This document shows positions 9,337-63,582 of a DNA stretch of 64,000 nt, one piece after another. Every line of letters begins with the position of its first letter. Position 1 is the stretch's first letter. The stretch comes from an uncultured Poribacteria bacterium. Lineage in GTDB: Bacteria > Poribacteria > WGA-4E > WGA-3G. A model generated the notes under the pieces. It ran no database searches. It saw nothing but the letters and a program-made list of their open reading frames with translations, and was not told the origin of the DNA. The stretch spans positions 1,826,008 through 1,890,007 of the forward strand of contig OX639992.1 in NCBI GenBank assembly GCA_951828515.1, written 5' to 3'. The translations under genes were made by a program, and so were the position numbers.

Positions 9337-9479
9337 CGGTGGATAAGCATCGTGATCGGGAGATCGTTCCTACACAAACAAGGGTCGCGATTCGGAGATC
9401 GCTCCTACAGAAGAGAAAAATAAAAAGGGCGAGGGATTCATAAAACCTTCTCCCCCGCCCTATTGTATACCAATACATA

Positions 9480-19267: not shown

Positions 19268-19313
19268 GCAAAATGAAGATTAAGAATTTAATCGGGTAAT
19301 GCGGGTATTAATT

Positions 19314-19358
19314 GTCTGAATCAGGATTTTCAGGATTCAAGGATTTTCAGGATTATAG
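19314..19358 (+). repeat. CAGGATT-array repeat copy 1 (TGTCTGAATCAGGATTTTCAGGATTCAAGGATTTTCAGGATTA)
   Basis: A ~44-bp element holding four CAGGATT half-sites; also present at 48515 and 49552. Confidence 0.6.
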
Positions 19359-29645: not shown

Positions 29646-29659
29646 CTCTCTACCTCCTC

Positions 29660-29779
29660 AGGACTTACGCAAAATTGGCTTTCATGCCAAAATTGAAGGG
29701 ATATTCCCGAAGAAAGCGCAATGAATTGCGCTACTACGAACCAAAGACCGCATGAAAACGGGTCAACTGCGTAAGTCCT
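29660..29779. mobile_element. MITE-like element (~120 bp) with 12-bp terminal inverted repeats AGGACTTACGCA / TGCGTAAGTCCT
   Basis: It is bounded by perfect TIRs and is intergenic. A near-identical copy (~95% identity) lies at 53575..53694. Confidence 0.7.
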
Positions 29780-29947
29780 ACCTCCTTTTTGAAGGAGTAA
29801 CTTATAGGCGTATGTGGACGGAAACGGAATAGCCGCTATCCCTCACAAATTAGGGATTTATACTACAGTAACGCGGATAGGGTACAGGAAGGTTGCAGAA
29901 AGTGCAATTCTTTGGAAATGTTGTGTGGTTACAATAAATTTGTAATG

Positions 29948-34202: not shown

Positions 34203-34384
34203 CCATAATTACTTGGACATTACGGATAGGCGAGGATACAATCCTCGCCAGCGATGGTGTGGGCATAATTACTTGGACATTACGGATAGGCGAGGATACA
34301 ATCCTCGCCAGCGATGGTGTGGGCTTCCTTCACTGAACATAGGCGAGGATACAACCCTCGCCAGCGATGGTGTGGGCTTCTTTC
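34203..34384. repeat. tandem repeat, ~60 bp x3, each unit carrying a REP-like hairpin GGCGAGGATACAATCCTCGCCAGCGATGGTGTGGG
   Basis: The first two units are identical: CATAATTACTTGGACATTACGGATAGGCGAGGATACAATCCTCGCCAGCGATGGTGTGGG. The third has a different left half. Confidence 0.7.
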
Positions 34385-34434
34385 ACTGAACAACTGTCCA
34401 CATATTTTCTGACTTTACTATAAAATCCGCGATA

Positions 34435-35472
34435 CTATTCCTGACAGACATGCACTTTAACTGCGCCGGAGGTCTTATCGGCAGACACTCGAAACGCTTC
34501 AACGATCTCTTCAAGCGGATAGTAGTGTGTCACCAATTTTGTAGCATCGACCTTGCCGGAGTCAATTAATTCAATCGCTGCCTCAAAGTCGGTCTCCATC
34601 CCGCTATACCCGTAGCAGTTAGACCCTGTAACGAATGCCTCTGACCAGACGATCTTGGAAAGATCCACTTCAAGCGGTTTGTAGTATCCCGCGACGAGGA
34701 CAACAGCCCCCTGTTTCCGAACGATATTCATAGCGATGTCAAAGTTTTCCCCACCGCCTACGGTTTCAATCACGGCATCAAAACCGATACCGTCTGTGAC
34801 ATCCTCGACGTATTCTTGCACGTCGGTGTCGCTGACGTTCACAACATGATTTGCACCGAGTGCTCTTGCGAGTTCTGCCTGTTGTTCGTATTTAACAGTA
34901 ATCAGCGTCTCTTTGACACCCGCGGCGACTGCATCCGCTAAAGCGAATTGTCCGATAGTCCCGCCACCGATAATTGCGATGGTATCTCTGGAATTGGCAC
35001 CTGTCCGCGCGATGGCACGATGTGAAACAGCGAGCGGTTCAACGAGTGCTCCTTGCTCAAATGTCATGTCTTTCGGTAATTTAAACAACCCGGAATAGTG
35101 CGTCGAGGTGTATTCAGCGAACCCGCCGTGCATACTCGGAGAGACTCCGGTTCTATTGAAGCAGAGATTATACTGTCCGGTCTCACAATACTTGCAGGTG
35201 CCACAGTGCGCAAAGCATTCCACAGCGACCCTGTCACCAATGTCAAATTTTGTTACACCATCGCCGAGTGCCACGACCACGCCACATGTCTCATGCCCTG
35301 CGGCGTATTCGTGGGATTGCCCCCAATGCCCGAAATAACTGTGCAGATCACTTCCGCAGATACCGGTCTGTTTTGTATCAACGAGTACAAAGCCTGGAGG
35401 CGGTTCGTTCCGTTCGACCTCACGAATTTCAATTTCTTCAATGCCTGTGTAGATAGCGGCTTTCATTCTCAT
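34435..35472 (-). CDS. zinc-dependent alcohol dehydrogenase, MDR family (threonine/sorbitol dehydrogenase-like)
   Basis: GICGSDLH ... GHE ... structural zinc Cys cluster (CAHCGTCKYCETG); GGGTIG nucleotide motif. Confidence 0.8.
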   Translation of the reverse strand: MRMKAAIYTGIEEIEIREVERNEPPPGFVLVDTKQTGICGSDLHSYFGHWGQSHEYAAGHETCGVVVALGDGVTKFDIGDRVAVECFAHCGTCKYCETGQYNLCFNRTGVSPSMHGGFAEYTSTHYSGLFKLPKDMTFEQGALVEPLAVSHRAIARTGANSRDTIAIIGGGTIGQFALADAVAAGVKETLITVKYEQQAELARALGANHVVNVSDTDVQEYVEDVTDGIGFDAVIETVGGGENFDIAMNIVRKQGAVVLVAGYYKPLEVDLSKIVWSEAFVTGSNCYGYSGMETDFEAAIELIDSGKVDATKLVTHYYPLEEIVEAFRVSADKTSGAVKVHVCQE

Positions 35473-37637: not shown

Positions 37638-40430
37638 ATGTCAATTTCAAATAGTAAACAGTATTTCTGGTACATTGCCGCCATTTTATTTAGCATTGCA
37701 TCAGTGATACCAACGGCTGTCAGTGCAGACACACTCTCAGTCGTTGTTCAAGATCAGAATGGAAATGCTATATCAGAAGCAAAAGTACAAATTGGAAACC
37801 AAGAACAAACAACTGACGAATCAGGAACTGCCACGTTTAGCGATGTCACAGACGCACAGTCAGTGACTGTAATAGCAATCGGATTTTCGAGTAAACGCAT
37901 TAATACCACTGCCGGACAAACTGAAGCAATAGTCAATCTTGCTCCGATTCAAACGATTGAATCCGTTGTAGTCGTCGGGACCCGGAGTATAGGTAGGCGA
38001 GCTTTACAAGCCTCCGTTCCAATAGAAGTCGTTAACAGGGAACAACTCAGCCTTACCGGTCAATCTGAGACAGGGCGTGTGCTTCAGATGTTAGTCCCCT
38101 CCTTCAATTTCTCAAGTTCAAGCATTAGCGATGGCACAGATGCCCTGCGTCCAGCAACACTGCGTGGCTTGGGACCTGACCAGACGCTTGTGCTTGTCAA
38201 TGGTAAGCGTCGTCACAAAAGTGCGTTGTTGCACGTTAACACGTCGGTAGGACGTGGGACCGCTGGAACGGACTTCAATGCGATTCCATCCGCGGCGATA
38301 GAGCGTATTGAGGTACTTCGGGATGGCGCGGCGGCACAGTACGGCTCCGATGCTATCGCTGGTGTTATCAACATCGTGCTAAAAGATGACGTTGACACAG
38401 GCGATGCCGACATCTATTGGGGACAAACATACGAAGGCGATGGCGACACATGGAACGGTAACGCCAACTACGGCATGAAAGTCGGCGAATCCGGTTTCCT
38501 CAATCTCACCGCTGAATGGCGCGATAGAAAACGGACGAACCAGGCAGGTCTTACGGGCGAACGGCAGTATGACTGGATAGATGTCGACCAAGGCAGACCT
38601 CCGGATAAAATGCTTGAAATTGAAAATGATGATGGAACTGTAACCGAAAAACCGGTATGGTTTGACCCGCGCGAATACACTTTTGAACGGCAGAACTTCC
38701 GCATTGGAGATGCCGACTCTTCACAAAAAATTGGATTTTATAATTTTGGACTTCCACTCGCCGCGGGTTTAGAACTCTATTCTTTTGGTGGGCACTCTTC
38801 ACGCCAAAACAACAGTGCCGGTTTTTACCGCCGAGCCAACCAAGCATCACGGACTGTCACCGAAATCTATCCCGACGGGTTCCTACCGGAAATCAATACC
38901 GACGTTGGGGACACATCCATTGCCTTAGGTATAGCATGGACGCATGAAGCGACCGACCTGAATGTCGATGCCAGTATCAATCACGGCTTGAATACATTCG
39001 ACTTTTTGATTTCTAACTCACTGAATGCCTCCTATGGTGCGAGCAGTCCGACCTCCGCGGATGCGGGTGGATTTGAGCTTTCGCAAACGGTGTTTAACTT
39101 AGATGTCACCTATCCACTGGACTACCAATCCTCACTGATGAACCTCGCAGGCGGTGTCGAGTTCCGTCGAGAAGGTTACGGCATCCACGCTGGCGAACCG
39201 CTTTCATGGATTAACGCTGGACTTGGGGCACCGGGTGCCACTGGCGGTATCCAAGTATTCCCCGGTTTCCGACCCGATAACGAATTGGACGAAAGTCGAA
39301 CCAATATTGCAGGTTATGCTGATTTTGAATCCTATCTCAGTGGACAACCCGGAGCAGGTCTTCTTGTCGGGGCAGCGGTGCGCGGTGAGCAGTATAGCGA
39401 CTTCGGTACCACCGTCACAGGAAAAGCGACGGCTCGCTATGACTTGACGAAACAGATTGCGGTTCGTGCGGCGGGCAGCACAGGTTTCCGGGCACCTTCA
39501 CTGCATCAACTCTACTTCAATAACATCAGTACGCAATTCTTGGTAGATGCGACGGATCTTGATGGTGACGGCGATACAACCGAAGTGTTACCACGCGAAC
39601 TCGGCACGTTCCGTAACGACAGCGATGCTGCACGTGCACTCGGGATACCTGAACTCAAAGAGGAAACCGCATTTAACGTCTCCGGTGGTTTCGTGTTGAA
39701 ACCGCTTGAGAAGATGTGGCTCACAGTAGACGGTTTTCTCATCCAAATTGATGATCGCATCGTTCTGAGTGGTAGTTTCAGTGCCGATAAAATTCCAAGC
39801 CTCATCGCGGCAGGGGCAAGCAGCGCACAGGTGTTCACAAACGTCGCACAGACACGCACCCAAGGCGTGGATGTCGCAGCGGGTTATCTCCACGCTTTCG
39901 ACGATGAATCGCTTCTTAATCTGAAGGTTGCGTTCACATGGGCAGATACCGAAGTTATCGGTGCCGTGGATGCGCCAGAAATCCTCATCGGGCTTGAGGA
40001 GACCCTCTTCCCTTCACAGGATCGCTCCATGATTGAGGAGTGGCAGCCGAACACCCGAATCAACTTCAGTGCAGATTACATCATCGGCGATCTCACCATC
40101 GGTGGTGCTTTGCGCTACTTCGGGAGTTACACCGTCCAAGAGGGAAGTGGTGCCGATCCGGCACGGCAGACTTACGGCGGGAAATGGCTTACCGATGTCC
40201 AGAGCAACTATCAACTCAATGAAGGGCTTTCATTGACTATCGGCGTGAACAACTTATTTGACCAACTGCCCGATCTCAATGAAATCGGTCAGTCGCGGGC
40301 TGGAACATTAGAGGATAGCACAGGACATGTCATTGTGGACTCGCCTGGCGTTTTCACGTATTCCAGAAGGTCGGCACCTTTCGGTTTCAATGGCGGACTT
40401 TACTACGCGAAACTATCCTATAGTTTCTAA
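37638..40430 (+). CDS. TonB-dependent outer-membrane receptor with N-terminal carboxypeptidase-regulatory-like domain
   Basis: Signal peptide, then a CarbopepD_reg-like stretch (VVVQDQNGNAISEAKVQIGNQEQTTDESGTATF). Plug region with TonB box. C-terminal barrel ends YYAKLSYSF (terminal Phe). Confidence 0.85.
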   Translation: MSISNSKQYFWYIAAILFSIASVIPTAVSADTLSVVVQDQNGNAISEAKVQIGNQEQTTDESGTATFSDVTDAQSVTVIAIGFSSKRINTTAGQTEAIVNLAPIQTIESVVVVGTRSIGRRALQASVPIEVVNREQLSLTGQSETGRVLQMLVPSFNFSSSSISDGTDALRPATLRGLGPDQTLVLVNGKRRHKSALLHVNTSVGRGTAGTDFNAIPSAAIERIEVLRDGAAAQYGSDAIAGVINIVLKDDVDTGDADIYWGQTYEGDGDTWNGNANYGMKVGESGFLNLTAEWRDRKRTNQAGLTGERQYDWIDVDQGRPPDKMLEIENDDGTVTEKPVWFDPREYTFERQNFRIGDADSSQKIGFYNFGLPLAAGLELYSFGGHSSRQNNSAGFYRRANQASRTVTEIYPDGFLPEINTDVGDTSIALGIAWTHEATDLNVDASINHGLNTFDFLISNSLNASYGASSPTSADAGGFELSQTVFNLDVTYPLDYQSSLMNLAGGVEFRREGYGIHAGEPLSWINAGLGAPGATGGIQVFPGFRPDNELDESRTNIAGYADFESYLSGQPGAGLLVGAAVRGEQYSDFGTTVTGKATARYDLTKQIAVRAAGSTGFRAPSLHQLYFNNISTQFLVDATDLDGDGDTTEVLPRELGTFRNDSDAARALGIPELKEETAFNVSGGFVLKPLEKMWLTVDGFLIQIDDRIVLSGSFSADKIPSLIAAGASSAQVFTNVAQTRTQGVDVAAGYLHAFDDESLLNLKVAFTWADTEVIGAVDAPEILIGLEETLFPSQDRSMIEEWQPNTRINFSADYIIGDLTIGGALRYFGSYTVQEGSGADPARQTYGGKWLTDVQSNYQLNEGLSLTIGVNNLFDQLPDLNEIGQSRAGTLEDSTGHVIVDSPGVFTYSRRSAPFGFNGGLYYAKLSYSF

Positions 40431-40569: not shown

Positions 40570-43368
40570 ATGTTAATTTTAAGCAATATACGTTACTTCT
40601 GGCACATCGCCATCATTTTATTCGGCATCACATTGATGATACCGATGGCAGCCAATGCCGATATACTTAAAGTAGTCGTTCAAGATCAAAATCGGAAGGC
40701 TGTTCCAGAAGCAAAAATTCAGGTTGGCAATCAAGAACAAACAACAGATGACTTTGGGACCGCCACTTTTAGCGATATAGCAGATGCAGAATCGCTAACT
40801 GTAACAGCAATTGGATTTCTGAAAAAACGAATTAATATCATTTCGGGGCAAACCGAGACCACAGTAATACTGGCTCCCATCCAAACGATTGAATCTGTTG
40901 TAGTCGTTGGAACTCGGAGTATGAGCAGACGAGCTCTGCAGGCTCCTGTCCCGATAGAAGTCGTTAACAGGGAACAACTCAACCTTACGGGTCAATCTGA
41001 AACGGGTCGTGTGCTTCAGATGTTAGTACCCTCCTTCAACTTCCCAAGTTCAACCATTAGTGATGGCACTGACGCGTTGAGACCCGCGACTTTGCGGGGT
41101 TTGGGACCTGATCAGGTGTTGGTACTGATCAATGGTAAACGTCGCCACAAAAGTGCGTTACTTCACGTAAACAGTTCGGTCGGTCGTGGCACTGCCGGCA
41201 CAGACTTCAACGCGATTCCTGCCGCGGCGATAGAACGTATTGAAGTACTCCGAGATGGTGCAGCGGCACAGTACGGCTCCGATGCCATCGCTGGTGTTAT
41301 CAACATTGTGCTGAAGAACGATGTCGATAAAGGCGATGCTAACATTTATTGGGGACAAACTTATGAAGGTGACGGAGATACGTGGAGTGGAAATGTGAGC
41401 TACGGAACGAAAGTAGGAGATTCCGGCTTTCTCAACTTAACAGCGGAATGGCGTGAACGTTATCGGGCAAATCGCGCTGGACTCACCGGGACGCGACAAT
41501 ACGATTGGGTAGAAGCGAATCAAGGCAGAGCACCTGATGCTATACTTGAGGTAAAGGATACAAATGGTAATGTGACAGGTGAAAAACGGGTCTGGTTTGC
41601 CCCACGCGAATATCATTTCAATCGGAAAAATCTCCGGGTCGGGGATTCTGACGCCTCACAAAAGGTTGGGGTTTACAATTTTGGCTTGCCGCTGACGGAA
41701 GGATTAGAGTTATATTCATTCGGTGGTTATTCCACGCGCCAAAACAACAGCTCAGGTTTTTATCGCAATGCCAAAGATGTTAGCCGTAACGTGAAAGCGA
41801 TCTATCCAGATGGTTTTCTCCCCGAAATTAACACAATGATTGAAGATGTATCCATTGCTTTGGGAATGGCTTGGAACCACACCTCAACAGATTTGAATGT
41901 TGATGTCAGTATCAATCACGGTCTGAATACGTTTGACTTTTTCGTTTCTAACTCTCTGAATGCATCCTATGGGGCTGCGAGTCCAACTGTCGCTGATTCC
42001 GGTGGCTTTCGACTCGATCAAACCGCTTTTAATGTAGATGCCACCTATCCGCTTATGTATCAGTCTTCACTGGTGAACCTCGCAGGGGGTGTCGAACTCC
42101 GTAGGGAAGGCTACGGTATTCGAGCGGGTGAACCTGTTTCTTGGCTCAACGCAGGTCTCGGTGCAGAAGGTGCCGCTGGCGGTATTCAGGTATTTCCCGG
42201 CTTCCGACCGGACAATGAAGTCGACGAAAGCCGAACCAATATTGCAGGCTATGCGGACTTCGAATCCTACTTAAGTGGCCAACCCGGAACAGGTCTTCTC
42301 GTCGGTGCTGCAGTGCGTGGGGAACAGTATAGCGATTTCGGTGCAACTGTCACAGGCAAAGCGACAACCCGCTACGAGCTGACAGAACAGGTTGCGGTCC
42401 GCGCTGCAGGTAGCACAGGTTTCCGAGCCCCTCTACTCCAACAACTCTATTTTAACAACATTAGCACACAATTCAAGGCGGACAATAACGATGCTGACGG
42501 CGATGGGGACACAACAGAACTACTGCCTTTCGAGATAGGGACATTTCGGAATGATAGTGCCACGGCGCGCACGCTCAACATTCCAGAGCTCAAAGAGGAA
42601 ACCTCCGTCAATGTTTCAGGCGGCATTGTGGTCAAACCCATTCAAAATCTATGGCTGACGCTTGATGCCTTTCAGATTCATATTGATGATCGGATTGTGC
42701 TGAGTGGAAGTTTCAAGGCTGATGCTGTCCCTGTCTTAGCACAAGCGGGTGTTAACCAAGCACAAGTCTTTACAAATGTCGGACAAACACGCACCCGTGG
42801 TATCGACATAGCTGCAGGTTACCTACATGCTTTCGACAACGAATCCATCCTGAATTTCAAGTTCGCGGCAACGTGGACGGACACTGAAGTTATTGGCGAT
42901 GTGGAAGTTCCCGGTCCTATTCTGATTGGCTTTGAGGAAATCCTTTTTCCGGAACGAGAACGCTCCATCATTGAGGAATGGCAACCGAACACGCGCATAA
43001 ATTTCACAGCAGATTATATTATTGGTCCCCTCAAGCTTGGATCTGCTTTACGCTACTTCGGAAGTTACACCGTTCAAGAAGGAAGCGGAGAGAGTGCGCA
43101 GCGACAAACCTATAGTGGAAAATGGCTCACTGATATCCAAGGGATATATCAACTCAGCAACTCTTTAGCACTGACGTTAGGGATAAACAATTTTCTTAGT
43201 CAACTACCTGACCTGAATGAGGTGGGACAAGCGCGTGGTGGCACCCTCATAGATAGTACTGGAACAGTTATTGCGGATTCACCAGGCGTTTTCACGTATG
43301 ACCGTAGGGCTGTCCCTTTCGGTTTTAACGGTGGATTTTACTACGCGAAGGTATCCTACAGTTTTTAA
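40570..43368 (+). CDS. TonB-dependent outer-membrane receptor (tandem paralog of 37638..40430)
   Basis: About 70% identical along its length to the upstream receptor, with the same domain order. It ends YYAKVSYSF. Confidence 0.85.
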   Translation: MLILSNIRYFWHIAIILFGITLMIPMAANADILKVVVQDQNRKAVPEAKIQVGNQEQTTDDFGTATFSDIADAESLTVTAIGFLKKRINIISGQTETTVILAPIQTIESVVVVGTRSMSRRALQAPVPIEVVNREQLNLTGQSETGRVLQMLVPSFNFPSSTISDGTDALRPATLRGLGPDQVLVLINGKRRHKSALLHVNSSVGRGTAGTDFNAIPAAAIERIEVLRDGAAAQYGSDAIAGVINIVLKNDVDKGDANIYWGQTYEGDGDTWSGNVSYGTKVGDSGFLNLTAEWRERYRANRAGLTGTRQYDWVEANQGRAPDAILEVKDTNGNVTGEKRVWFAPREYHFNRKNLRVGDSDASQKVGVYNFGLPLTEGLELYSFGGYSTRQNNSSGFYRNAKDVSRNVKAIYPDGFLPEINTMIEDVSIALGMAWNHTSTDLNVDVSINHGLNTFDFFVSNSLNASYGAASPTVADSGGFRLDQTAFNVDATYPLMYQSSLVNLAGGVELRREGYGIRAGEPVSWLNAGLGAEGAAGGIQVFPGFRPDNEVDESRTNIAGYADFESYLSGQPGTGLLVGAAVRGEQYSDFGATVTGKATTRYELTEQVAVRAAGSTGFRAPLLQQLYFNNISTQFKADNNDADGDGDTTELLPFEIGTFRNDSATARTLNIPELKEETSVNVSGGIVVKPIQNLWLTLDAFQIHIDDRIVLSGSFKADAVPVLAQAGVNQAQVFTNVGQTRTRGIDIAAGYLHAFDNESILNFKFAATWTDTEVIGDVEVPGPILIGFEEILFPERERSIIEEWQPNTRINFTADYIIGPLKLGSALRYFGSYTVQEGSGESAQRQTYSGKWLTDIQGIYQLSNSLALTLGINNFLSQLPDLNEVGQARGGTLIDSTGTVIADSPGVFTYDRRAVPFGFNGGFYYAKVSYSF

Positions 43369-43520
43369 CGGTTGCTAAAATCCAAAAGAGGCAGGCATGG
43401 TTGAAAACCGCGTCTTTTTGCATATTAAAATTATTAAGTTTTCCCGTAGGAGCAATCCTCGAATCGCAACTTCTTTAATAGAAGCGACAGAAAACTGAAA
43501 ACAGAACGATCCCCGTGAAG

Positions 43521-48475: not shown

Positions 48476-48514
48476 AAGAATGGAAGGCTGGGAAGAGTGG
48501 AAGGGGAAGAGATC

Positions 48515-48557
48515 GTCTGAATCAGGATTTTCAGGATTCAAGGATGTTCAGGATTAG
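48515..48557 (+). promoter_or_regulatory. CAGGATT-array repeat copy 2, intergenic upstream of sugar-phosphate isomerase gene
   Basis: Same 44-bp element, in the same orientation as the flanking genes. Confidence 0.4.
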
Positions 48558-49483: not shown

Positions 49484-49551
49484 GTGTTCTGTCTACCATA
49501 GGCGCGCTGCATGAAGATTCAGAATTTAATTCGATTATGTGGTGCGTCCAT

Positions 49552-49595
49552 TGTCTGAATCAGGATTTGCAGGATTCAAGGATTTACAGGATTAT
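49552..49595 (+). promoter_or_regulatory. CAGGATT-array repeat copy 3, intergenic upstream of RraA-like gene
   Basis: Same element, in the same orientation. Confidence 0.4.
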
Positions 49596-50481: not shown

Positions 50482-50565
50482 AAGCTCCGCACGCCGCAAT
50501 TCAGATTGACGACAACGCAGACTCCTGCTAAAATTAAGAGAAACCCACAGACACGGAGGGGACGC

Positions 50566-51393
50566 ATGAAACCTCTTAACGACTTCGCTCTCAAACAACG
50601 AAAATATCTGCCGACCTTCACAAAAGCCACCGGAAAACCTACCGTTTACATACCAGGCTACCCGTATGAGGACGAGCACCCTATACCCGCAACCGGATTC
50701 CACGGAGAACAGATCAACATCTTGTATGAACAACTCTCCAGTTATTTCGCAACGCACACCCATATCTATATCGGCGTTGACAACTTCATCTATTACCGTG
50801 AAGGCGATACCACGAAGAGCGTCGCACCCGATATTTATGTCGTCTTAGGCGCAGCAAAATTTCCACTCCGCAGGAGTTTCTACACTTGGGCAGAAGGTGC
50901 GGTGCCAACGGTGCTTTTTGAGTTTTTGTCGGATTCGACAGCCGATGAGGATCGAGAAGAAAAGGTACAGATATATCTACGGGATATAGGGGCACAAGAG
51001 TATTTCATCCATCAACCCGAGATGGAGAAACCTGCAGAGTTTCGCGGGTGGCGGCGGGACCCCTCAGGCGCGATTGTTGAGATGCCCGCGGATGCACAGG
51101 GAGATTTATTTAGCGAGTCCTTAAATTTGTCGTTCCGGTGGACAGATCAACATCATAGCCATGTCCGGTTGTTACGTCCTTATCTGCCGGATGGCACTCC
51201 GATCACGACTGCTATAGAAGAGCGGAACCTTCGCGCAGCAGCGAAACTGCGTGCGGAAGAAGCAGAAGTCCGTGCGGAAGAAGCAGAAGTCCGTGCGGAA
51301 GAAGCAGAAGTCCGTGCGGCAGCAGAAGCGCGCCGACGGCAGGCATTAGAACTTGAGTTGGAACACCTTCGCCGCCGACTCACAGACCGATAA
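50566..51393 (+). CDS. Uma2 family endonuclease (DUF820) with C-terminal heptad tandem repeat (RAEEAEV x3)
   Basis: PDIYVVLG...PTVLFEFLSDST is the Uma2 core. A GGAGG RBS lies 7 nt upstream of the ATG at 50566. The C-terminus is coiled-coil-like and encoded by a 21-bp x3 tandem repeat. Confidence 0.7.
   Translation: MKPLNDFALKQRKYLPTFTKATGKPTVYIPGYPYEDEHPIPATGFHGEQINILYEQLSSYFATHTHIYIGVDNFIYYREGDTTKSVAPDIYVVLGAAKFPLRRSFYTWAEGAVPTVLFEFLSDSTADEDREEKVQIYLRDIGAQEYFIHQPEMEKPAEFRGWRRDPSGAIVEMPADAQGDLFSESLNLSFRWTDQHHSHVRLLRPYLPDGTPITTAIEERNLRAAAKLRAEEAEVRAEEAEVRAEEAEVRAAAEARRRQALELELEHLRRRLTDR
51250..51330 (+). repeat. in-frame 21-bp tandem repeat (CGTGCGGAAGAAGCAGAAGTC x3 + partial) inside Uma2 gene
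   Basis: Encodes RAEEAEV x3. Confidence 0.7.
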
Positions 51394-51711
51394 CAGAGAA
51401 AACACGTCACTGGCCAAGCGATCAACCTCGCCCACTGCTGCGCTTTGACCGATATTCTGTTTTATGCGTCCATCCTAACAAAAACTTTACAGACCCTTTG
51501 AAAATATTTGACATTTAAACGGAAAATGTAGTATGATTGGGCTTTGGTTCCTGTAAAAAGCATGTGCGATTGTTTTTAATGAAAGTAATGACCATGCGGG
51601 TTTTACTTTTTCATTAGCACTCAATTTTTACATGAGCTAATTCGGTATTTTGTTATTTTTGATTATAGATCGGCAAACTACACTATAGACTCAGAATCCA
51701 CAGGAAGCCCT

Positions 51712-52302
51712 ATGACACCTGAAGGGATAGTCGTTGCGGCGGTTGAGCAATATTTTTCGCAGCCCAAATTCCAAAAATTCTCTACAAAACAAGAATATCA
51801 AATTAAGATGGGCTCTGATAAACGCAGAGCAGACGTTGTGCTTATGAATAGCAAAGGCGATCTTGCGGCTATTGCAGAATGCAAGCGTCAGGGGGTAGAG
51901 GGAGATGGAATCGATCAATTGAAGTCTTATCTCAGTGCAACGGACACATCTTTAGGGATATTCGCGAATAGTACGGAACCCGATTCATGGAATTTCTACG
52001 AAAATCTAGGGAGAAACCGATTTAGAGAGATAACGACACATTCTGAGTTTGAAAAACAGGTTGTAAAAGGTGGAGATAACTTTGTAACTCGCGCATTAGA
52101 TTTTTTTAGACAGTTTCTGCGACCTAAACCTGGCAACATCAAGAGTGATGACAGGAAACCTACCGGCATAGAAATAGATGAAGAGTCCGCGGAACCAATT
52201 CCCCCGGTAATATCCCCAAAACGACACATTGACTCTATAATTCCCAAGGACAGACCTTTGCAAAAACGTGAGTTTGATAAAGGAGACGGATTTTATTATT
52301 AA
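51712..52302 (+). CDS. PD-(D/E)xK nuclease-fold protein (type I restriction enzyme R N-terminal domain-like)
   Basis: RADVVLMNSKGDLAAIAECK gives D...E.K spacing typical of HsdR_N/Mrr-like PD-(D/E)xK nucleases; 196 aa with an AGGAAG RBS. Confidence 0.5.
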   Translation: MTPEGIVVAAVEQYFSQPKFQKFSTKQEYQIKMGSDKRRADVVLMNSKGDLAAIAECKRQGVEGDGIDQLKSYLSATDTSLGIFANSTEPDSWNFYENLGRNRFREITTHSEFEKQVVKGGDNFVTRALDFFRQFLRPKPGNIKSDDRKPTGIEIDEESAEPIPPVISPKRHIDSIIPKDRPLQKREFDKGDGFYY

Positions 52303-52958
52303 ACTCACGTTGATTTAGGGATTTGTATATGTACCGCGATCCATCAGCGAAAGGCATGGATGAGGTAAATAATCGACTCAGTGAGGACATAATAACACTA
52401 CGCACAATGGACAGACAACGGAAACAGACAATCGCGTAGCAACAGCAAAACAGAGATGATGGTTGCCGCGATAAAATCATCGGGTACGCAATTATTGGTA
52501 TTATTGGTATTATTTTCGCACTGATAGGTGCCTTGTCGGAAGGGTGTTAAAAAAATAATCCCTGTCCTATCGTCGCAAAACTACAGCCTGCTATCCTGAT
52601 TCCAGCAACAAATGCTGACGAACAAAAAATCCGAGAAACCCGTGGCATCCGCGTCAATCCGCGATTCAGACGGATACCTCTCGCCGTAAAGCAAAATAAT
52701 TACACACCCAGAACTCCACAAACTAACACGTTTATGCTACAAAGAGGCCCTGTGAATTCTAACATTCACTAAAAAAATTGCCTCGTAGAGCAACAGGTCG
52801 GGAATCGGAGTTCCCTCCTACAGACGAACTAATCGCTCTGGGCATTTTCAACGGCTTGTGGAAGGATTATCAAGGGGTACCTGAAGGGTTGATTTAGAAA
52901 AGTATTTTGAAAATGTGATTCCAGTAGAAACGAGTAGCGGAAAAAGATGTTGCAACTT

Positions 52959-53366
52959 TTAGAAGAGTTTTGCTTTTTTATTTCCCCATTTTGGATCAAC
53001 TGAAGGTGCACAAAGACAGTCGCGATTGTGTTCCAAAGCCGCTGCCTCACGGTAATGACCACCATTTTCCAATTCGCGTATTTTCTGATTATAGTGCTCA
53101 AGCACGCGTTGGTATACTTCCTCTGCAGTCAAACCATCAGCAAACGCCCGATCTATTTCAGAATCGCAGTCAAAAAAAGCGTCGGAAATACGCATCAAAA
53201 CGATGAAGTCCTCATTGTATCCAAAGTAGGCAAGGCACCCATGGGTCCCAAAGTCAGGTCCGAGTTTAGCAGCAGTTTGACAAGCAAAAAAATGAACAAC
53301 CTTGCTATCTGATTCCTCAGATTGATAACTCCCTATATCAAAAATAGAGTTGCAATGTTCTCCCAT
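52959..53366 (-). CDS. hypothetical protein
   Basis: 135 aa ORF with no RBS and no recognisable motif. Coding status uncertain. Confidence 0.25.
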   Translation of the reverse strand: MGEHCNSIFDIGSYQSEESDSKVVHFFACQTAAKLGPDFGTHGCLAYFGYNEDFIVLMRISDAFFDCDSEIDRAFADGLTAEEVYQRVLEHYNQKIRELENGGHYREAAALEHNRDCLCAPSVDPKWGNKKAKLF

Positions 53367-53574
53367 ATAGAAGGGACAAGCAGTGAAATGGAACTTGTGT
53401 TGGTTCTCCTTCTACCACTTCTCGTAAAGAAATCCATTGACCATCGGAAGTTATAGCCACTGGACGACTCCAATGGTCTTCGTGAGGCATTGGTGCGTTA
53501 TTCGCCATGAGTGTCTCCTTAAGGAATCAGAACCCAAACTATTTTTTTTAAACTGGTTGATATTTCTAAGTATC

Positions 53575-53694
53575 AGGACTTACGCAAAATTGGCTTTCAT
53601 GCCAAAATTGAGGGGATATTCCCGAAGAGAGCGCAATGAATTGCGCTACTACGAACCAAAGACCGCACGAAAACGGGTCAACTGCGTAAGTCCT
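53575..53694. mobile_element. MITE-like element, second near-identical copy (TIR AGGACTTACGCA)
   Basis: It shares ~95% identity over 120 bp with 29660..29779 and has the same TIRs. Confidence 0.7.
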
Positions 53695-53867
53695 AAAGTA
53701 TTATACGATAAAACGAAATAAAAGTCGAAAATAGGACTGGGTGCCACTATGTGAAAAATTTGACTTTTCGTAGTGTATATGTTATACTTTAAAATGAAAT
53801 TTTTCAGGCAGCTACACTTAAGATAGGGTTGTAGAAGCGGTATTGTGCGTTGTTATCTGGATGAAAA

Positions 53868-54818
53868 ATGAGAATCGCCAAAAATCTGACAGACCTCATC
53901 GGGAATACGCCAACGATCCGCCTGAACGCCTTGCCCAGCAAGGACGATGCGACTATTTTCGCGAAACTGGAAGCCTACAACCCGGGTGGCAGTATCAAGG
54001 ACAGGATTAGTTATGCGATGGTCGTTGATGCCGAAGAACGCGGTATCCTTAGAAAAGGGGATACCATCGTTGAACCTACAGCGGGTAACACAGGCTTAGG
54101 GCTTTCTATCGTCGGTATCGCGAGAGGTTATCCTGTCACTTTGACGATGCCAGAAAACGTCAGTCGTGAGAAATACGAACTCCTTTCCGCCTTCGGTGCG
54201 AAAATTGTGCTAACACCAGAACACGGTGGTATGGCAAGTGCCATTTGGGAGGCAGAAGAGATTGTCAGACGACACTCGCGGCATTATATGCCGAACCAGT
54301 TCACAAACTCTGCGAATCCAGAAATCCACCGGCGCACGACTGCAGTCGAAATTCTTAAAGCAATCGGTAGCGACATCGATTTTTTCGTTACTGGGGTTGG
54401 AACAGGTGGTACATTGACAGGCGTTGGGGAAGTGTTGAAAACAGAATGCCCCGATGTGAAAGTTGTCGCAGTGGAACCGCGGGTTTCAGCCGTGCTTTCC
54501 GGGGGTCCCCCGAATCCGACGCGAATTGATGGTCTCGGTGCGGGAATGATCCCCGAAGTGCTCAATGTAGATGTGATTGATGAAGTCATCACGGTCTCCG
54601 AAGAAAAAGCCTATCAAATGATGAAATCAATTTCAACAAGCGAAGGTTTGTTAGTCGGTATGTCGTCGGGTGCGAATGTGTACGCTGCCTTAGAGGTTGC
54701 AAAAGACCAAGGACCGGATAAAACTGTCGTTACAATTCTCCCCGACACAGGGGAACGTTATTTCAGTTTGAGTCGTTACTTTGAAATCGAATCGGACATC
54801 ATGGAGGCACTCCCTTAA
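53868..54818 (+). CDS. cysM: cysteine synthase (O-acetylserine/O-phosphoserine sulfhydrylase, CysK/CysM family)
   Basis: PLP-lysine motif SIKDRISYAM and glycine loop GVGTGGTLTG. 316 aa. Sits next to cysH, cysO-like and mec-like genes. Confidence 0.85.
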   Translation: MRIAKNLTDLIGNTPTIRLNALPSKDDATIFAKLEAYNPGGSIKDRISYAMVVDAEERGILRKGDTIVEPTAGNTGLGLSIVGIARGYPVTLTMPENVSREKYELLSAFGAKIVLTPEHGGMASAIWEAEEIVRRHSRHYMPNQFTNSANPEIHRRTTAVEILKAIGSDIDFFVTGVGTGGTLTGVGEVLKTECPDVKVVAVEPRVSAVLSGGPPNPTRIDGLGAGMIPEVLNVDVIDEVITVSEEKAYQMMKSISTSEGLLVGMSSGANVYAALEVAKDQGPDKTVVTILPDTGERYFSLSRYFEIESDIMEALP

Positions 54819-54842
54819 AGTGTCCTGTATGGGAAACCAAGT

Positions 54843-55011
54843 GGAGTCTGCCTACTCTATGCTGTGGACGGCAGAGCGGAGTCTGCCTACTACTATGCTG
54901 TGGACGGAAACCGAACGGAGTCTGCCTACTACTATGCTGTGAACGGAAACCGAACGGAGTCTGCCTACTACTATGCTGTGAACGGCAGAACGGAGTCTGC
55001 CTACTACTATG
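54843..55011 (+). repeat. tandem repeat, 5 units of GGAGTCTGCCTACTACTATG(CTGTGGACGG + 6-9 nt); last unit provides the RBS and ATG of cysH
   Basis: Five copies of a ~28-bp core with 6-9-bp variable joints, read directly from the sequence. Confidence 0.7.
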
Positions 55012-55776
55012 AAGCCAATTGACGAAGAATTGACGTATTCAGTAGATCATGCTCTCTGTCAAGAAATTGTCTTGACGGAGGCTCCTCAAGAAATTCTTTT
55101 CTCTCTGTTTAAGCGGTTCAAAGCGCGCGCCGCAATTGTCACAAGCGGGCAACTATCGGGCATGGTACTGCTCCACCTGGCTGCCGAAAACCAATTGCCG
55201 TTTCGGGTCTGTACGCTTGATACACTTCGACTTTTTCCTGAGACCTATACCTTCCTTGAACAGGTGGAATCGCGCTACGGTATCCAGATCGAACAGATTC
55301 AGCCTGACCCACAAGAAGTACAGCAGATGGTGACAGAGCACGGCGAACACCTGTTTTTTGACAGCAAAGCGAAACAGGAATACTGTTGTAACATCCGAAA
55401 AGTTCGTCCGATGCAACGGCTCCTGGAAACGTTGGATGTTTGGATAACGGGTTTACGACACGACCAATCGGATGCGAGACAACAACTCCGAAAGGCAGAA
55501 ATCATATCTTCAACGACACATCCTGTGCTCAAGGTCAGTCCGCTTCTTCAGTGGACAACTGACGAGGTGTGGCAATTTGTTCGTGAAAACGAAATTCCTG
55601 TGAATCCGTTGCTTGAAGCAGATGACCGTGGTCATTATTATGAATCGCTTGGGTGCATCATCTGCACAACATCCATAAAACCCGGAGAACCGAAACGAGC
55701 AGGACGGTGGCGTTGGCAGAACGCCCCCTCTTCAGAAGAAAATACCAAAGAGTGTGGATTACACTACTCGATTTAA
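55009..55776 (+). CDS. cysH: phosphoadenosine/adenosine phosphosulfate reductase (CysH family)
   Basis: PAPS-reductase fold with C-terminal redox motif KECGLH (ECGLH signature). Its start codon lies inside the last unit of a 5x tandem repeat. Confidence 0.8.
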   Translation: MKPIDEELTYSVDHALCQEIVLTEAPQEILFSLFKRFKARAAIVTSGQLSGMVLLHLAAENQLPFRVCTLDTLRLFPETYTFLEQVESRYGIQIEQIQPDPQEVQQMVTEHGEHLFFDSKAKQEYCCNIRKVRPMQRLLETLDVWITGLRHDQSDARQQLRKAEIISSTTHPVLKVSPLLQWTTDEVWQFVRENEIPVNPLLEADDRGHYYESLGCIICTTSIKPGEPKRAGRWRWQNAPSSEENTKECGLHYSI

Positions 55777-55921: not shown

Positions 55922-56209
55922 ATGTCTGTAACAGTCCGTATCCCAACCCCGCTGAGACGTTTGACACAAAACTTGGCTGAGGTTGAAGCAGAAGGTGCCA
56001 ATATTGAAGGTATCATCGACAATCTTGAAGTAAACTATCCAGGGATGAAAGAACGTCTCTGTGATGACGGCGGAAATATCCGTCGGTTTGTAAATATCTA
56101 TCTCAACGACGAAGACATCCGCTTCCTCGATGGAAAAGCGACCGCTGTCGAAGATGACGCTGAAATCTCAATTATTCCCGCGATCGCTGGCGGATGCAGT
56201 CTATCTTAA
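55922..56209 (+). CDS. cysO: ThiS/MoaD/CysO-family sulfur carrier protein with C-terminal GG-CSLS extension
   Basis: 95 aa beta-grasp. It ends ...IIPAIAGG followed by 4 extra residues CSLS. AGGAGA RBS. Adjacent to a JAMM protease gene. Confidence 0.7.
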   Translation: MSVTVRIPTPLRRLTQNLAEVEAEGANIEGIIDNLEVNYPGMKERLCDDGGNIRRFVNIYLNDEDIRFLDGKATAVEDDAEISIIPAIAGGCSLS

Positions 56210-56315: not shown

Positions 56316-56780
56316 ATGACAACTTTGAAACCAGAAATCCTCAGCGAGATTTGTGACCACGCGAAATTGGAGTTTCCCAATGAATGTTGCGGTATCATTC
56401 TGGGGACTGAAACACAAGTATTTGTTCGGAAATGCCGGAACATACAGAATGAATTGCATCAGGAAGATCCAGACACATATCCGCGCGATGCCCGCACAGC
56501 GTACGTCATACACCCTGACGATTTAATCGCCATTCACAAAGAGTCTGACACACAGCAACGGCAGATTAAGGCGTTCTACCACTCACACCCAAACCACGAG
56601 GCGTACTTCTCCGAAAAAGACAAGGCAGATGCAACCGTATGGGGTGAACCTGCTTATCCGGATGCTACATATTTGGTTATCTCAATTTACGACACCGAAA
56701 TACGCGCGGTGAAGGCTTTCGCATGGGATGAAACAGGGAAAGATTTTATTGAGATCAAGGCACCGTTTGGAGAAACCTAA
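56316..56780 (+). CDS. mec: JAMM/MPN+ metalloprotease (Mec+/QbsD-like, sulfur-carrier C-terminal processing)
   Basis: EFPNECCGIILG (Glu) ... FYHSHPNHEAYFSEKD gives the HxHx7Sx2D JAMM zinc motif; 154 aa. Confidence 0.75.
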   Translation: MTTLKPEILSEICDHAKLEFPNECCGIILGTETQVFVRKCRNIQNELHQEDPDTYPRDARTAYVIHPDDLIAIHKESDTQQRQIKAFYHSHPNHEAYFSEKDKADATVWGEPAYPDATYLVISIYDTEIRAVKAFAWDETGKDFIEIKAPFGET

Positions 56781-56828
56781 TACAGTAGAAGCGATTTCCC
56801 GAACACGACCCTCATTGAGGCGAGAACC

Positions 56829-60944: not shown

Positions 60945-61004
60945 TGTCCTTGATTACGGCACACGCTATGTGCCTCCTACTTTTCGCGCCGTATTCGGCG
61001 TATA

Positions 61005-62028: not shown

Positions 62029-62748
62029 TTAAATTACCCAATACTTCCAGAGGTCTTCTGGAATTTCGTATTTAATCTCCTCCCGTTTTTTATGGGAGTA
62101 ACGTGCGAAGATCCCAAAACGGGGGACATCTTTGACATTCGCTGAACCGGTATGGCAGAGAAACGCGTGCCACAACACAACATCGCCAGGGGCACCGATA
62201 AACTCACAAGGTCCCTCTGGTGATAAATCCGAAAGCACATGCCATCCCCACTCCTCAATATCATAGAAACTGCCATCAATCTGCTCTGGATATTGAAGGA
62301 AGTACTTGTGCGTTGAAGAGTGACTCTGGGGCCAAAAGACGAAAGCCCCGCCACCGGGTTCGACATCATAGAGGTAGGTCGTTGCACCGAGCATAAAAGG
62401 GCTCCAACCACCGGGACCGTATGCGTCAATATGTCCACTACCGGGCATCGACCACTCTTCTTCAGGGTTGGGCCACTTGACAAGCGGTGAACCACCACCC
62501 CCAGCAAATTGACCGCCACCGAGTTGTTCGGTAATCTCCTGCATCACAGGCAACTGCCCAAACAATGGCGAAAAACTGAAGTTTTGCACCACGTAATCGC
62601 CGGGCCATGTTTCTGGCGTTTCCATGCTGGAATTAAAATGCTCCCAGACCTGGGTCCGCCATCCCTCAATTATCTCAGGATTAATCAAATTCTTAAGGAT
62701 TAAGTATCCATGTTCCTGAAAAAATGCTATCTGATCTGCTGTAAGCAT
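62029..62748 (-). CDS. phytanoyl-CoA dioxygenase (PhyH) family Fe(II)/2OG oxygenase
   Basis: GSGHIDAYG (HxD) ... LCHTGSAN distal His. The ATG at 62748 is the likely start; the track ORF extends to 62814. Tandem paralog of the next gene. Confidence 0.7.
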   Translation of the reverse strand: MLTADQIAFFQEHGYLILKNLINPEIIEGWRTQVWEHFNSSMETPETWPGDYVVQNFSFSPLFGQLPVMQEITEQLGGGQFAGGGGSPLVKWPNPEEEWSMPGSGHIDAYGPGGWSPFMLGATTYLYDVEPGGGAFVFWPQSHSSTHKYFLQYPEQIDGSFYDIEEWGWHVLSDLSPEGPCEFIGAPGDVVLWHAFLCHTGSANVKDVPRFGIFARYSHKKREEIKYEIPEDLWKYWVI

Positions 62749-62801
62749 CTGGGTTCCCTCTATCGGTAAAGGACTGATGGCTGATAACTGACAACCACCT
62801 C

Positions 62802-63527
62802 TTAAATTGCCCAATATTTCCAGAGATTCTCTGGGATCTCATATTTAATCTCATCCTGTTTTTTATGGGCATATCGCGCAAAGAGACCAAAACGCGGGAC
62901 GCTTCTCACATTTTCCGATCCGGTATGACAGAGAAACGCGTGCCATAGCACAACATCACCCGCAGCACCAATAAATTCATGGGGTCCCTCTGGGGACAAA
63001 TCCGAGAGGACGTGCCACCCCCAACCCTCAATATCATAGAAACTGCCATCGATCTGTTCAGGGTACTGAAGGAAGTACTTGTGCGTTGAAGAGTGGCTCC
63101 GGGGCCAAAAGATGAAAGCACCCGCCTTGGGTTCAGCATCATAAAGATAGGTTGTCGCCCCTATCATAAAGGGGCTCCAGCCAGCAACAGCCCCATACGC
63201 GTCGATGTGTCCATCCTTGGGCAGTGCCCACTTTTCTTCAGGATTGGGCCACTTGATAATCGGTGACCCGCCACCGCCTGTAAAGAACTGTCCGCCACCA
63301 AGCTGATCGGTGATCTCTTGCATCACAGATAGATGCCCAAACAACGGTGAGAAACTGAAGCCTGGAATCTCATAATCGTTGGGCCACGTCTCCGGTGTTT
63401 CCAAGCTGGAATTAAAATGCTTCCATATCTGGGTCCGCCATCCCTCAATTATCTCAGGATCAATCAAATTCTTAAGGATAAGGTATCCGTGTTCCCGAAA
63501 AAATGCTATCTGCTTTGTCGTCAGCAT
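62802..63527 (-). CDS. phytanoyl-CoA dioxygenase (PhyH) family Fe(II)/2OG oxygenase (tandem paralog)
   Basis: About 75% identical to 62029..62748 (MLTTKQIAFFREHGYLILKNLIDPEIIEGWRTQIW...). The ATG at 63527 has an AAGGA RBS. Confidence 0.7.
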   Translation of the reverse strand: MLTTKQIAFFREHGYLILKNLIDPEIIEGWRTQIWKHFNSSLETPETWPNDYEIPGFSFSPLFGHLSVMQEITDQLGGGQFFTGGGGSPIIKWPNPEEKWALPKDGHIDAYGAVAGWSPFMIGATTYLYDAEPKAGAFIFWPRSHSSTHKYFLQYPEQIDGSFYDIEGWGWHVLSDLSPEGPHEFIGAAGDVVLWHAFLCHTGSENVRSVPRFGLFARYAHKKQDEIKYEIPENLWKYWAI

Positions 63528-63582
63528 ACGAATTCCTTCTGTGGTTGTTTGACGCACAGCGGCGTGCGCCTACTATCTTGCA

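Follow-up and report, generated by a model that had tools for sequence, protein, structure and literature searches.

Repetitive extragenic palindromic (REP) elements of the GTAG type are characterized by stems of 6-9 bp, a terminal GTAG, complementary stem changes among subfamilies, tandemly reiterated clusters and occasional intragenic copies, and some of their families additionally show an unpaired dinucleotide and, at the far end, a conserved motif of 3 nt (PMC3733652). Classical bacterial interspersed mosaic elements (BIMEs), which are built from REPs, alternate in orientation, and in most described families dimers are seldom arranged head-to-tail (PMC3733652). The other described system of relevance, that of MIRUs (mycobacterial interspersed repetitive units), inserts at start codons with -4 coupling (PMC12548453). 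Herein, we analyzed a 64,000-nt stretch of DNA (hereafter referred to as the window) from a member of Candidatus Poribacteria, a phylum of sponge symbionts, focusing on a tandem array at 54843-55011 that lies between cysK and cysH, the latter encoding an assimilatory adenosine phosphosulfate/phosphoadenosine phosphosulfate (APS/PAPS) reductase. A preliminary description had interpreted this array as a five-fold duplication of the ribosome-binding site and start codon of cysH, possibly acting in translational coupling or attenuation. The array is a head-to-tail cluster in which the unit number changes by recombination or slippage and the last unit overlaps the cysH start. We consider it likely that the cluster consists of a small REP-like, GTAG-tagged palindromic element which was co-opted as the cysH start, and that it is no dedicated attenuation device.

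The five copies of GGAGTCTGCCTACTACTATG start at 54843, 54878, 54917, 54956 and 54992, corresponding to spacings of 35, 39, 39 and 36 nt, and nearly the entire cysK-cysH spacer of 190 nt was found to be repeat. The exact 20-mer was detected at the latter four positions (expected 0 from 100 shuffles), and the copy at 54843, CTACTCTATG, carries a 1-nt deletion relative to it. Tandem Repeats Finder called 54832-55011 with a period of 39, 4.8 copies, 88% matches and a score of 255. Sequence reading, this call and the exact 20-mers against shuffles thus confirmed the five-fold array of the preliminary description, except that it begins earlier, with a half-unit at 54825. The copies are linked by CTGTG(G/A)ACGG plus either CAGAGC/CAGAAC ('b') or AAACCGAAC ('a'), and the gaps between the 30-nt conserved parts read, in order, CAGAGC, AAACCGAAC, AAACCGAAC and CAGAAC (6-9 nt). 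The components are given below, where R1 denotes the covariance model described later and L-numbers denote the related loci compared, namely ten loci obtained via an identical ThiS protein, species-level loci and metagenome-contig matches.

54825 to 54842, plus strand: degenerate half-unit CTGTATGGGAAACCAAGT, the left edge of the array, 6 nt past the cysK stop; resembles the 'a' spacer CTGTGGACGGAAACCGAAC.
54843 to 54877, plus strand: unit 1, core with the 1-nt deletion and b' spacer CTGTGGACGGCAGAGC; R1 match at 54862-54901, 32.1 bits.
54878 to 54916, plus strand: unit 2, exact core and 'a' spacer CTGTGGACGGAAACCGAAC, from sequence reading and the 20-mer match.
54917 to 54955, plus strand: unit 3, exact core and TGA-bearing 'a' spacer CTGTGAACGGAAACCGAAC; L003 has TGG here and a b' spacer one unit earlier.
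54956 to 54991, plus strand: unit 4, exact core and 'b' spacer CTGTGAACGGCAGAAC, from sequence reading and the 20-mer match.
54982 to 55011, plus strand: canonical complete element ACGG-CAGA-ACGGAG-TCTG-CCTACTAC-TATG; R1 match at 54976-55015, 34.3 bits, E=1.3e-7.

The half-unit is homologous to GTAGGGAAACC in a sister clade (L017), and unit 3, judged from its sequence, looks like a recombinant of a TGA-type with an a-type unit. A CRISPR array, which the preliminary description had already discounted, was rejected on the grounds that the 6-9-nt stretches between the conserved parts recur and that no cas genes were present among the neighbours.

The complete element at the end of the array was predicted to form a hairpin at 54984-55001 (-9.9 kcal/mol; 6-bp stem GGCAGA/TCTGCC, 6-nt loop), and it ends in the three bases that form the start codon of cysH. 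It reads GAC-GGCAGA-ACGGAG-TCTGCC-TACTAC-TATG on the cysH strand and GTAG-TA-[GGCAGA]-CTCCGT-[TCTGCC]-GTC on the minus strand. The other canonical hairpin (54870-54887) arises from pairing of the GGCAGA arm of unit 1 with TCTGCC of unit 2, the two together accounting for two of the four inter-unit junctions. CTAC, i.e., GTAG on the opposite strand, directly follows the stem on its 3' side, and the T.CTAC columns were invariant in a 15-sequence alignment of the family. The minus-strand consensus of the family, GTAG-(TA/GA)-stem-CTCCG(T/A)-stem-G(A/T)C, equals the published GTAG-REP architecture. In particular, the Poribacteria element shares with GTAG REPs/BIMEs (Di Nocera et al., 2013, PMC3733652; Nunvar et al., 2010, PMC2817692) a hairpin of 26-38 nt, a stem of 5-7 bp and the terminal GTAG, and with the GTAG-1 and GTAG-2 families a dinucleotide between tag and stem and a 3-nt GAC/GTC at the far end. 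In the DNA examined, its copies are likewise dispersed and mostly intergenic, appear to fall into subfamilies with complementary stem changes, form tandem clusters and are occasionally intragenic.

The dispersal became apparent from searches beyond the cysH locus. A scan of metagenome contigs with the 20-mer gave three matches (L092, L093 and L094), of which L093 is another Poribacteria cysK-cysH spacer with two units. The 30-mer ACGGCAGAACGGAGTCTGCCTACTACTATG has an identical copy at an unrelated locus, lying antisense in the gene for a 438-aa protein of L094 (866-895), and a further identical one in L095; diverged copies were found in L096 and L097, and the flanks of L095-L097 are clearly diverged. 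Because the same TATG is present at the unrelated locus, it belongs to the element. The third match, L092, was rejected as a family copy, since it is a bare 20-mer within an unrelated coding sequence (CDS) with dissimilar flanks, and was treated as chance. In the 420-448-aa Poribacteria protein family to which the 438-aa protein belongs, the 30-mer encodes IVVGRLRSAV and replaces loop residues in a hypervariable surface loop, where homologues of the 438-aa protein have no such segment or carry other inserts. Two of these other inserts, VFPVGVVSNRTQ and SVSERDASCPPEKGGRGVVQ, may, from their sequences, be other translated repeat elements. Rickettsia palindromic elements (RPEs) are about 100-150 bp in length. 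The arrangement at L094-L097, though not that in the window, resembles RPEs and intragenic REPs in that a 30-nt element stands in frame (antisense) in a protein loop, and differs from RPEs in that the segment replaces loop residues, with no simple insertion. Intragenic REPs have been reported (PMC3733652).

Mismatch-tolerant and hairpin-anchored scans over the DNA of the window and the related loci further revealed copies with common flanks (GAC...CCTACTAC-YWTG) but different, still complementary stems, such as GGCACA/TGTGCC at the radical-SAM/PhyH junction (position 18080 of L001/L007/L010), GGCACA/TGTGCT in L058 and GGCACGC/GCGTGCC in L080. A sister subfamily takes the form GTC-GGGAA-TCGGAG-TTCCC-TCCTAC (in general, GTC-stem-TCGGAG-stem-TCCTAC), and was recovered by an independent repeat search of the window as family D9 with 6 copies, including two head-to-tail pairs 35 nt apart. 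The stem variants of the whole family comprise GGGAA/TTCCC, GCGAT/ATCGC, GAGAC/GTCTC, GGCACA/TGTGCC and GGCAGA/TCTGCC. A scan for loop, stem and tail gave 6 sites in the window versus 0.65 in shuffles, with 13 distinct stem/loop variants across the loci. The covariance model R1, built from 15 representatives, recovered the array plus non-seed members of the window at 43438(-), 56777(-), 33238(+) and 60950(+), and gave 39 matches with E<0.01 in 419 kb from 49 other strains/species, distant ones included. In the DNA examined, a family member occurs roughly every 6-10 kb, and the window contains at least 10 sites besides the array, among them the following.

4905 to 5035, plus strand: three head-to-tail sister copies (GTC-GGGAA-TCGGAG-TTCCC-TCCTAC and variants) starting at 4905, 4969 and 5004 (64 and 35 nt apart); intergenic; found by D9 and R1.
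9349 to 9415, plus strand: two head-to-tail sister copies 35 nt apart, 39.8 + 24.5 bits, beside a different hairpin repeat; between minus-strand genes, antisense.
43438 to 43475, minus strand: single member GCGAT-TCGAGG-ATTGC-TCCTAC, between convergent genes; R1 26.7 bits, E=2e-5, non-seed.
52792 to 52829, plus strand: single member GGGAA-TCGGAG-TTCCC-TCCTACAG, intergenic; R1 36.2 bits.
56777 to 56814, minus strand: degenerate member in the spacer between the JAB gene and the next gene of the sulfur operon, antisense; R1 21.1 bits, E=9e-4, non-seed.
60950 to 60988, plus strand: subfamily-bridging member TAC-GGCACA-cgcta-TGTGCC-TCCTAC between minus-strand genes; weak R1 match, 15.1 bits, E=0.05.
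63553 to 63580, plus strand: degenerate TACTA-type copy GACGCACAGCGGCGTGCGCCTACTATCTTGCAT at the radical-SAM/PhyH junction, orthologue of the clean copy at 18080 of L001.

The member at 56777-56814 is conserved in L003, L004, L005, L008 and L009. All window copies lie between open reading frames (ORFs), the intragenic exception being L094-L097, and their orientation relative to the flanking genes is mixed, with antisense sites at 9349/9384, 56777, 60950 and 63553. The view that the unit is a duplicate of the native cysH ribosome-binding site therefore did not stand, the unit being a dispersed REP-like hairpin found at many loci, in both orientations and even within CDS.

Several observations nevertheless weigh against the assignment to REP-like elements or set the family apart from described ones. 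In contrast to BIMEs, all five units share one orientation, as do the pairs 4969/5004 and 9349/9384, and an inverted pair was found only in L080. The loop differs from GTAG REPs in being a conserved hexamer, (N)CGGAG, and the 'a'-type units (two of the five, units 2-3) are devoid of the canonical stem and hairpin, an alternative fold of -9.5 kcal/mol being predicted for them; a search for more 'a'-type units in the DNA examined yielded one partial relative only (L080). No REP-associated tyrosine transposase (RAYT) is linked to the array, in that no Y1 transposase was found among the 17 window proteins scanned against Pfam, and no obvious RAYT-sized ORF was seen between inverted copies near the L068 clusters. 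Moreover, beyond the array, the exact TACTAC subfamily was seen in the DNA examined at no more than about four types of locus. The table of stem covariation, with 93.8% paired and 19 double changes, is circular, the seeds having been preselected by the hairpin scan, and it therefore illustrates the family and is no proof of it; the independent support comes from the D9 search, the shuffle-controlled scan and R1. Finally, every ATG-ATG spacing in the window is divisible by three, a possible hint of frame selection, although unit spacings of 35 and 38 nt in relatives mean that this is no rule. As for precedent within the phylum, a literature search on REPs or repeats in Poribacteria found nothing relevant.

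The comparison of the cysH upstream region among strains and relatives, which the preliminary description had called for, revealed that the unit number varies among independent assemblies. The repeat-bearing spacer was present in every genome whose CysH is at least ~91% identical, and additionally in the sub-lineage of L001, L007 and L010 at 89%. Two units were found in L001, L004-L007, L009-L013, L015, L018, L020, L021 and L093, three in L002 and L008, and five in the window and L003. Over the 7 kb surrounding the array, the window and L003 share 99.56% identity, but one spacer type differs between them (b'-b'-a-b in L003 vs b'-a-a-b in the window), with one TGG/TGA difference in addition. 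Judged from their sequences, a single event, either the duplication of a unit or an unequal crossover, could have turned an ancestor with four cores into each of the two arrays. Such differing five-unit arrays despite the 99.56% identity indicate that whole-unit change outpaces substitution in the flanks, and the earlier suggestion of a slippage-prone tract is well supported by these data and by the relatives with two, three or five units.

Since short-read assemblies are error-prone at tandem repeats, a repeat collapsed or expanded by the assembler had also to be considered. The array of 190 nt, however, is shorter than a typical read pair, five units are also present in L003, i.e., the independently assembled 6.3-Mb contig ptg000430l from a different sample (ERZ18545484), and several other assemblies show clean units, two or three in number, that differ at single positions. 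The varying units in independent assemblies therefore exclude an assembly artefact, to which we attach practically no weight.

In the more distant Poribacteria (66 species loci), the array repeat was absent from the cysK-cysH spacer. In 37 of these 66 loci outside the repeat-bearing lineage, the cysK stop is separated from the cysH start by 3-35 nt, and the repeat is therefore a lineage-specific acquisition. Across the phylum the spacer ranges from 3 to 227 nt. Separately, the spacers of L014/L016, L032, L057/L060 and L068 (~2770-3000) were found to contain unrelated GTAG-type hairpins, making the site a phylum-wide hot spot; the L068 spacer has a tandem pair of GTAGGGCGAGGGCCTGTCCCTCGCC, and that of L060 has GGTTCGGT...ACCGAACCTAC elements.

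The ATG codons of the array are located at 54859, 54895, 54934, 54973 and 55009 (spacing 36, 39, 39 and 36 nt), all in one frame, and GGAG stands 13 nt ahead of each except in unit 1 (12 nt). The GGAG-13-ATG arrangement of the preliminary description was thus borne out, and its spacing, starts and upstream-ORF (uORF) peptides proved correct by translation. It was also right in that the fifth unit supplies the cysH start: ATG 55009 is the earliest possible start of the 255-aa PAPS_reduct ORF, and the loop GGAG is the sole Shine-Dalgarno (SD)-like motif ahead of it. The close relatives all have ...CTACTACTATGAAGCC at the cysH start. In sister lineages, cysH begins otherwise, with ATGATCGAG-AAGCCA (MI[ETA]KP...), or has no ATG there, and it can therefore be inferred from this comparison that the element has replaced the original initiation region. 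The occurrence of GGAG at antisense sites, in 3' regions and inside CDS means that the motif was not placed as the SD of cysH. It was also observed that in L017, L019 and L030 (~2890-3001; proteins P0001, P0002, P0060 and P0061) the usual cysH ATG is mutated (GGCAATCATTGAG), and that gene calls in the sister lineage stretch CysH to 268-288 aa via repeat-derived sequence.

Two short reading frames precede cysH within the array.

54829 to 54942, plus strand: uORF of 37 codons through units 1-3, in frame with cysH and ended by the TGA of unit 3.
54973 to 54981, plus strand: two-codon uORF ATG CTG TGA of unit 4, 27 nt ahead of the cysH start.

Translation from 54829 gives MGNQVESAYSMLWTAERSLPTTMLWTETERSLPTTML, which includes the MLWTETERSLPTTML of the preliminary description, and units 3 and 4 yield ML* only. 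From its sequence, the frame at 54829-54942 is probably not a gene, and the gene callers disagree on the array ORFs (52, 29 or 30 aa, or no call). Among the relatives, the uORF is open and in frame in L013, L018 and L021, giving a 12-13-aa extension of cysH; in L001, L007, L010, L015 and L020, it is out of frame and overlaps the cysH start in an ATGA; and in most it is in frame but ends at a TGA or TAA. L093 has ATA in place of the upstream ATG, which all other repeat-bearing relatives retain.

These frames bear on the possibility that the array is coding, either for a small repeat protein or for residues that extend CysH at its N terminus, the candidates being a 52-aa ESAYYYAV(N/D)G frame and the MLWTETERSLPTT frame. 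ORFs of 52-53 aa do span the array, ORFs of 29-52 aa are called in L003, L005 and L008, and the extension of L013, L018 and L021 is open. However, indels that are not multiples of three (35- and 38-nt spacings) break all frames among the relatives, TGA/TAA stops interrupt the cysH frame of most strains, and the unit is non-coding or antisense elsewhere and missing from more distant Poribacteria, all of which makes a coding repeat highly improbable. A RiPP-like precursor (ribosomally synthesized and post-translationally modified peptide) or coding repeat in the ESAYYY frame was rejected likewise, its frames being broken among the relatives.

The same data were weighed with regard to adaptive translational tuning, in which the units would be selected SD+AUG modules forming a contingency tract, with the copy number adjusting cysH via decoys, a termination-reinitiation relay or start unmasking. 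Each unit carries GGAG-13-ATG, close strains differ in copy number, all ATGs of the window share one frame, the upstream ATG is kept in all repeat-bearing relatives but one, and the ATGA overlap of L001, L007, L010, L015 and L020 has the geometry of classical -4 coupling, as known from MIRUs (PMC12548453). On the other hand, L093 has ATA for its upstream ATG; the frame, length and peptide of the uORF vary (open in three loci, stopped in most, out of frame in five); GGAG is the loop motif of a family that also occurs antisense, in 3' regions and inside CDS; the 13-nt gap of cysH is the longest among the window genes, exceeding the 5-12 nt of the others; and the array folds no better than shuffles (z=-1.25). 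Tuning was thus judged to be unlikely, while remaining the foremost of the rival explanations. Less probable still is a stronger version, in which the GGAG-loop element with its terminal (A/T)TG would be a portable translation-initiation cassette, serving as a selected variable-number dial on APS-reductase translation, and the family would seed SD+start modules, or antisense CUCC anti-SD-like loops, between operon genes. If true, this would be a MIRU-like system built from REPs in a sponge symbiont. Simple-sequence contingency loci are similar in having a repeat tract by the start codon and a unit number differing between close strains. They differ in that the units here are 36-39 nt vs 1-9 nt, that a change in copy number shifts neither the cysH frame nor a promoter spacer, and that no evidence of on/off switching was seen.

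Concerning RNA structure, no Rfam family matched anywhere in the window at gathering thresholds, and the permissive search gave a chance-level hit (13 bits, E=0.59). No promoter or terminator consensus was found within 54843-55011, and no terminator-like site in the cysK-cysH spacer. The predicted fold of a two-copy relative gave z=-2.3 against shuffles, vs -1.25 for the array. A conserved riboswitch-like element or alternative-hairpin switch was rejected, since many relatives have lost or disrupted the pairing of GGCAGA with TCTGCC (GGCATA/TTTGCC, TCAGCC, 'a' spacers), and a promoter in each unit was rejected for want of a consensus match inside the array. The attenuation device that the preliminary description had raised as a possibility, like a leader-peptide device, found no support in view of the ATA of L093, the varying uORF frames, the absence of Cys codons from the uORFs, the lack of a terminator-like site and a hairpin that is not kept everywhere; a leader-peptide attenuator was discarded, the uORFs being unconserved and the fold being no better than shuffles.

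The hairpins could alternatively serve as a binding platform, the ACGGAG loops being iterated sites for an RNA-binding regulator of the CsrA type, or for a DNA-binding/nucleoid protein, controlling the sulfur operon. CsrA recognizes GGA in hairpin loops. By analogy, ACGGA would fit a loop-borne ANGGA, and the last such site would cover the SD; the five identical motifs are regularly spaced; and several proteins are known to bind REPs/BIMEs (PMC2817692). The hairpin is formed, however, at only two of the four inter-unit junctions, unrelated genes carry the motif here and there in either orientation, the loops of sister copies read UCGGAG or CGGGAG, and no regulator gene was found nearby among the neighbours scanned. 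Such a platform thus appears very unlikely.

On balance, the co-opted REP-like cluster accounts best for the observations, and the earlier reading as a regulatory start-region duplication is partly supported. The following course of events would be consistent with the comparisons. The ancestor of the lineage would already have had two units in the cysK-cysH spacer, and recent unequal recombination or replication slippage would have produced three and then five units together with recombinant ones. The spacer would lie within the cysK-cysH-cysO-mec mRNA, in which the last element would act as the initiation region, its terminal TATG providing the cysH start and the loop GGAG 13 nt upstream serving as SD. 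The upstream units would be by-products, which would have lengthened the spacer from no more than 35 nt (37/66 distant loci) to 190 nt, and would supply SD/AUG decoys as well as short uORFs (one of 37 codons from 54829; ML* at 54973). Such additions may weaken, reduce or relay translational coupling and ribosome flow from cysK to cysH, for which the intercistronic distance matters (review PMC12548453). The weak hairpins (~-10 kcal/mol) might also slightly alter segmental mRNA stability, a long-proposed role of REPs (PMC3733652). From the sequence, a coupling effect of the array on cysH is thus possible; should cysH translation be affected at all, this would probably be incidental.

Units of MIRUs are about 46-101 bp. 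Functionally, by analogy, the array works most like a mycobacterial MIRU-variable-number tandem repeat (MIRU-VNTR) at the cysH locus, yet lies outside that family. Both are short, apparently mobile repeats located at the start codon of a downstream operon gene and iterated between genes with strain-variable copy number (two, three or five units here); a small internal ORF can be coupled to the downstream gene in MIRUs, and an ATGA (-4) overlap that might allow this was seen here in five relatives. The present units, in contrast, are 35-39 nt long, form a GTAG hairpin, occur in both orientations relative to transcription and belong to an unrelated phylum, the likeness being one of description; furthermore, the internal ORF is unconserved, and that of the window is an in-frame one ending at least 27 nt upstream. 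The most fitting view of the copy-number variation is that a selfish repeat drifts in the manner of a MIRU-VNTR, possibly with modest tuning as a side-effect.

The array resides in an operon-like row of sulfur-assimilation genes with the following features.

53760 to 53788, plus strand: promoter-like site TTGACT-17-TATACT with TG before the -10, ~80 nt upstream of cysK; candidate operon promoter by consensus match only.
53868 to 54818, plus strand: cysK/cysM-like cysteine synthase (pyridoxal phosphate-dependent; PALP, E=2.9e-71), the upstream gene of the operon.
55009 to 55776, plus strand: cysH, assimilatory APS/PAPS reductase of 255 aa (PAPS_reduct, E=4.7e-43), with CC...CxxC and C-terminal ECGLH motifs.
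55922 to 56209, plus strand: ThiS/CysO-like sulfur carrier (Pfam scan), downstream operon gene with conserved synteny.
56316 to 56780, plus strand: JAB/Mec-like protease (Pfam scan), downstream operon gene with conserved synteny.

The closest cysH homologues and all of the related species-level loci (80/80) are Poribacteria metagenome-assembled genomes, in agreement with the assignment of the window to this phylum. For the CysH protein, 2406 homologues were found, which the source records label phosphoadenylyl-sulfate reductase, and the cysK-cysH synteny holds in 89/89 Poribacteria loci where both genes could be located. An identical-protein look-up returned no record for CysH, and for CysK and JAB only one contig, which was already among the loci compared.

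Upstream of the operon, the segment 50506-53366 between the RraA-like gene and cysK is part of an extra block of ~3.4 kb present in the window and L003 and missing from L001, L002, L004 and L006; besides small ORFs, it encodes an HSDR_N_2 protein and a putative restriction endonuclease of the Uma2 family. L005 has another insert, with T5orf172/MUG113 genes. The region 50506-53366 looks like a variable island adjoining the sulfur operon. Within its Uma2-family ORF (50506-51393), a perfect tandem repeat of 21 nt x3.3, CGTGCGGAAGAAGCAGAAGTC, occupies 51250-51319 and would be an in-frame 7-aa repeat.

Other repeats were also noted in the window. A second tandem array at 34204-34392, between the minus-strand genes for PhyH (33282-34028) and zinc-dependent alcohol dehydrogenase (34435-35472), consists of three units (60/60/53 nt) arranged head-to-tail, of which two match at 100% identity. 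Every unit holds a REP-like hairpin distinct from that of the cysH array, ATAG-GCGAGGA-TACAA-TCCTCGC-CAGCG. A related hairpin, GGCGAGGTT...AACCTCGCCAGCGG, has single copies at 9310, 11589, 20270, 29949 and 58095. A repeat of ~123 nt at 29658-29780, 53573-53695 and 15358-15418 (two copies 98% identical) contains a TACTAC-tailed hairpin, GCGCAA-tgaa-TTGCGC-TACTAC-GAACCAAAG, and one of its copies lies ~170 nt upstream of cysK. The 7-nt tandem repeat AGCAATC x4.6 at 4717-4748 shares an intergenic region with the triplet at 4905-5035, and a dispersed 46-nt element built of CAGGATT(T) short repeats has three copies (19311-19356, 48512-48557 and 49550-49595). Two pairs of tandem paralogues were also present, one TonB-dependent-receptor-like (37638-40430 and 40570-43368; ~73% DNA identity) and the other of the PhyH family (62029-62814 and 62802-63557; ~81%).

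The array reveals no new regulatory mechanism. The analysis does indicate that apparent duplications of ribosome-binding sites in the genomes of uncultivated symbionts can be clusters of REP-like selfish repeats, and it cautions gene callers, considering the spurious ORFs of 29-52 aa and the cysH lengths of 255-288 aa in relatives. The cysK-cysH spacer is usable as a VNTR marker for Poribacteria strains in sponge metagenomes. In the repeat-bearing lineage, a selfish hairpin repeat would have supplanted the native initiation region of a core sulfur-assimilation gene, and the family to which it likely belongs represents an abundant, unusually head-to-tail GTAG-type repeat in a phylum from which, it seems, no such family has been reported.

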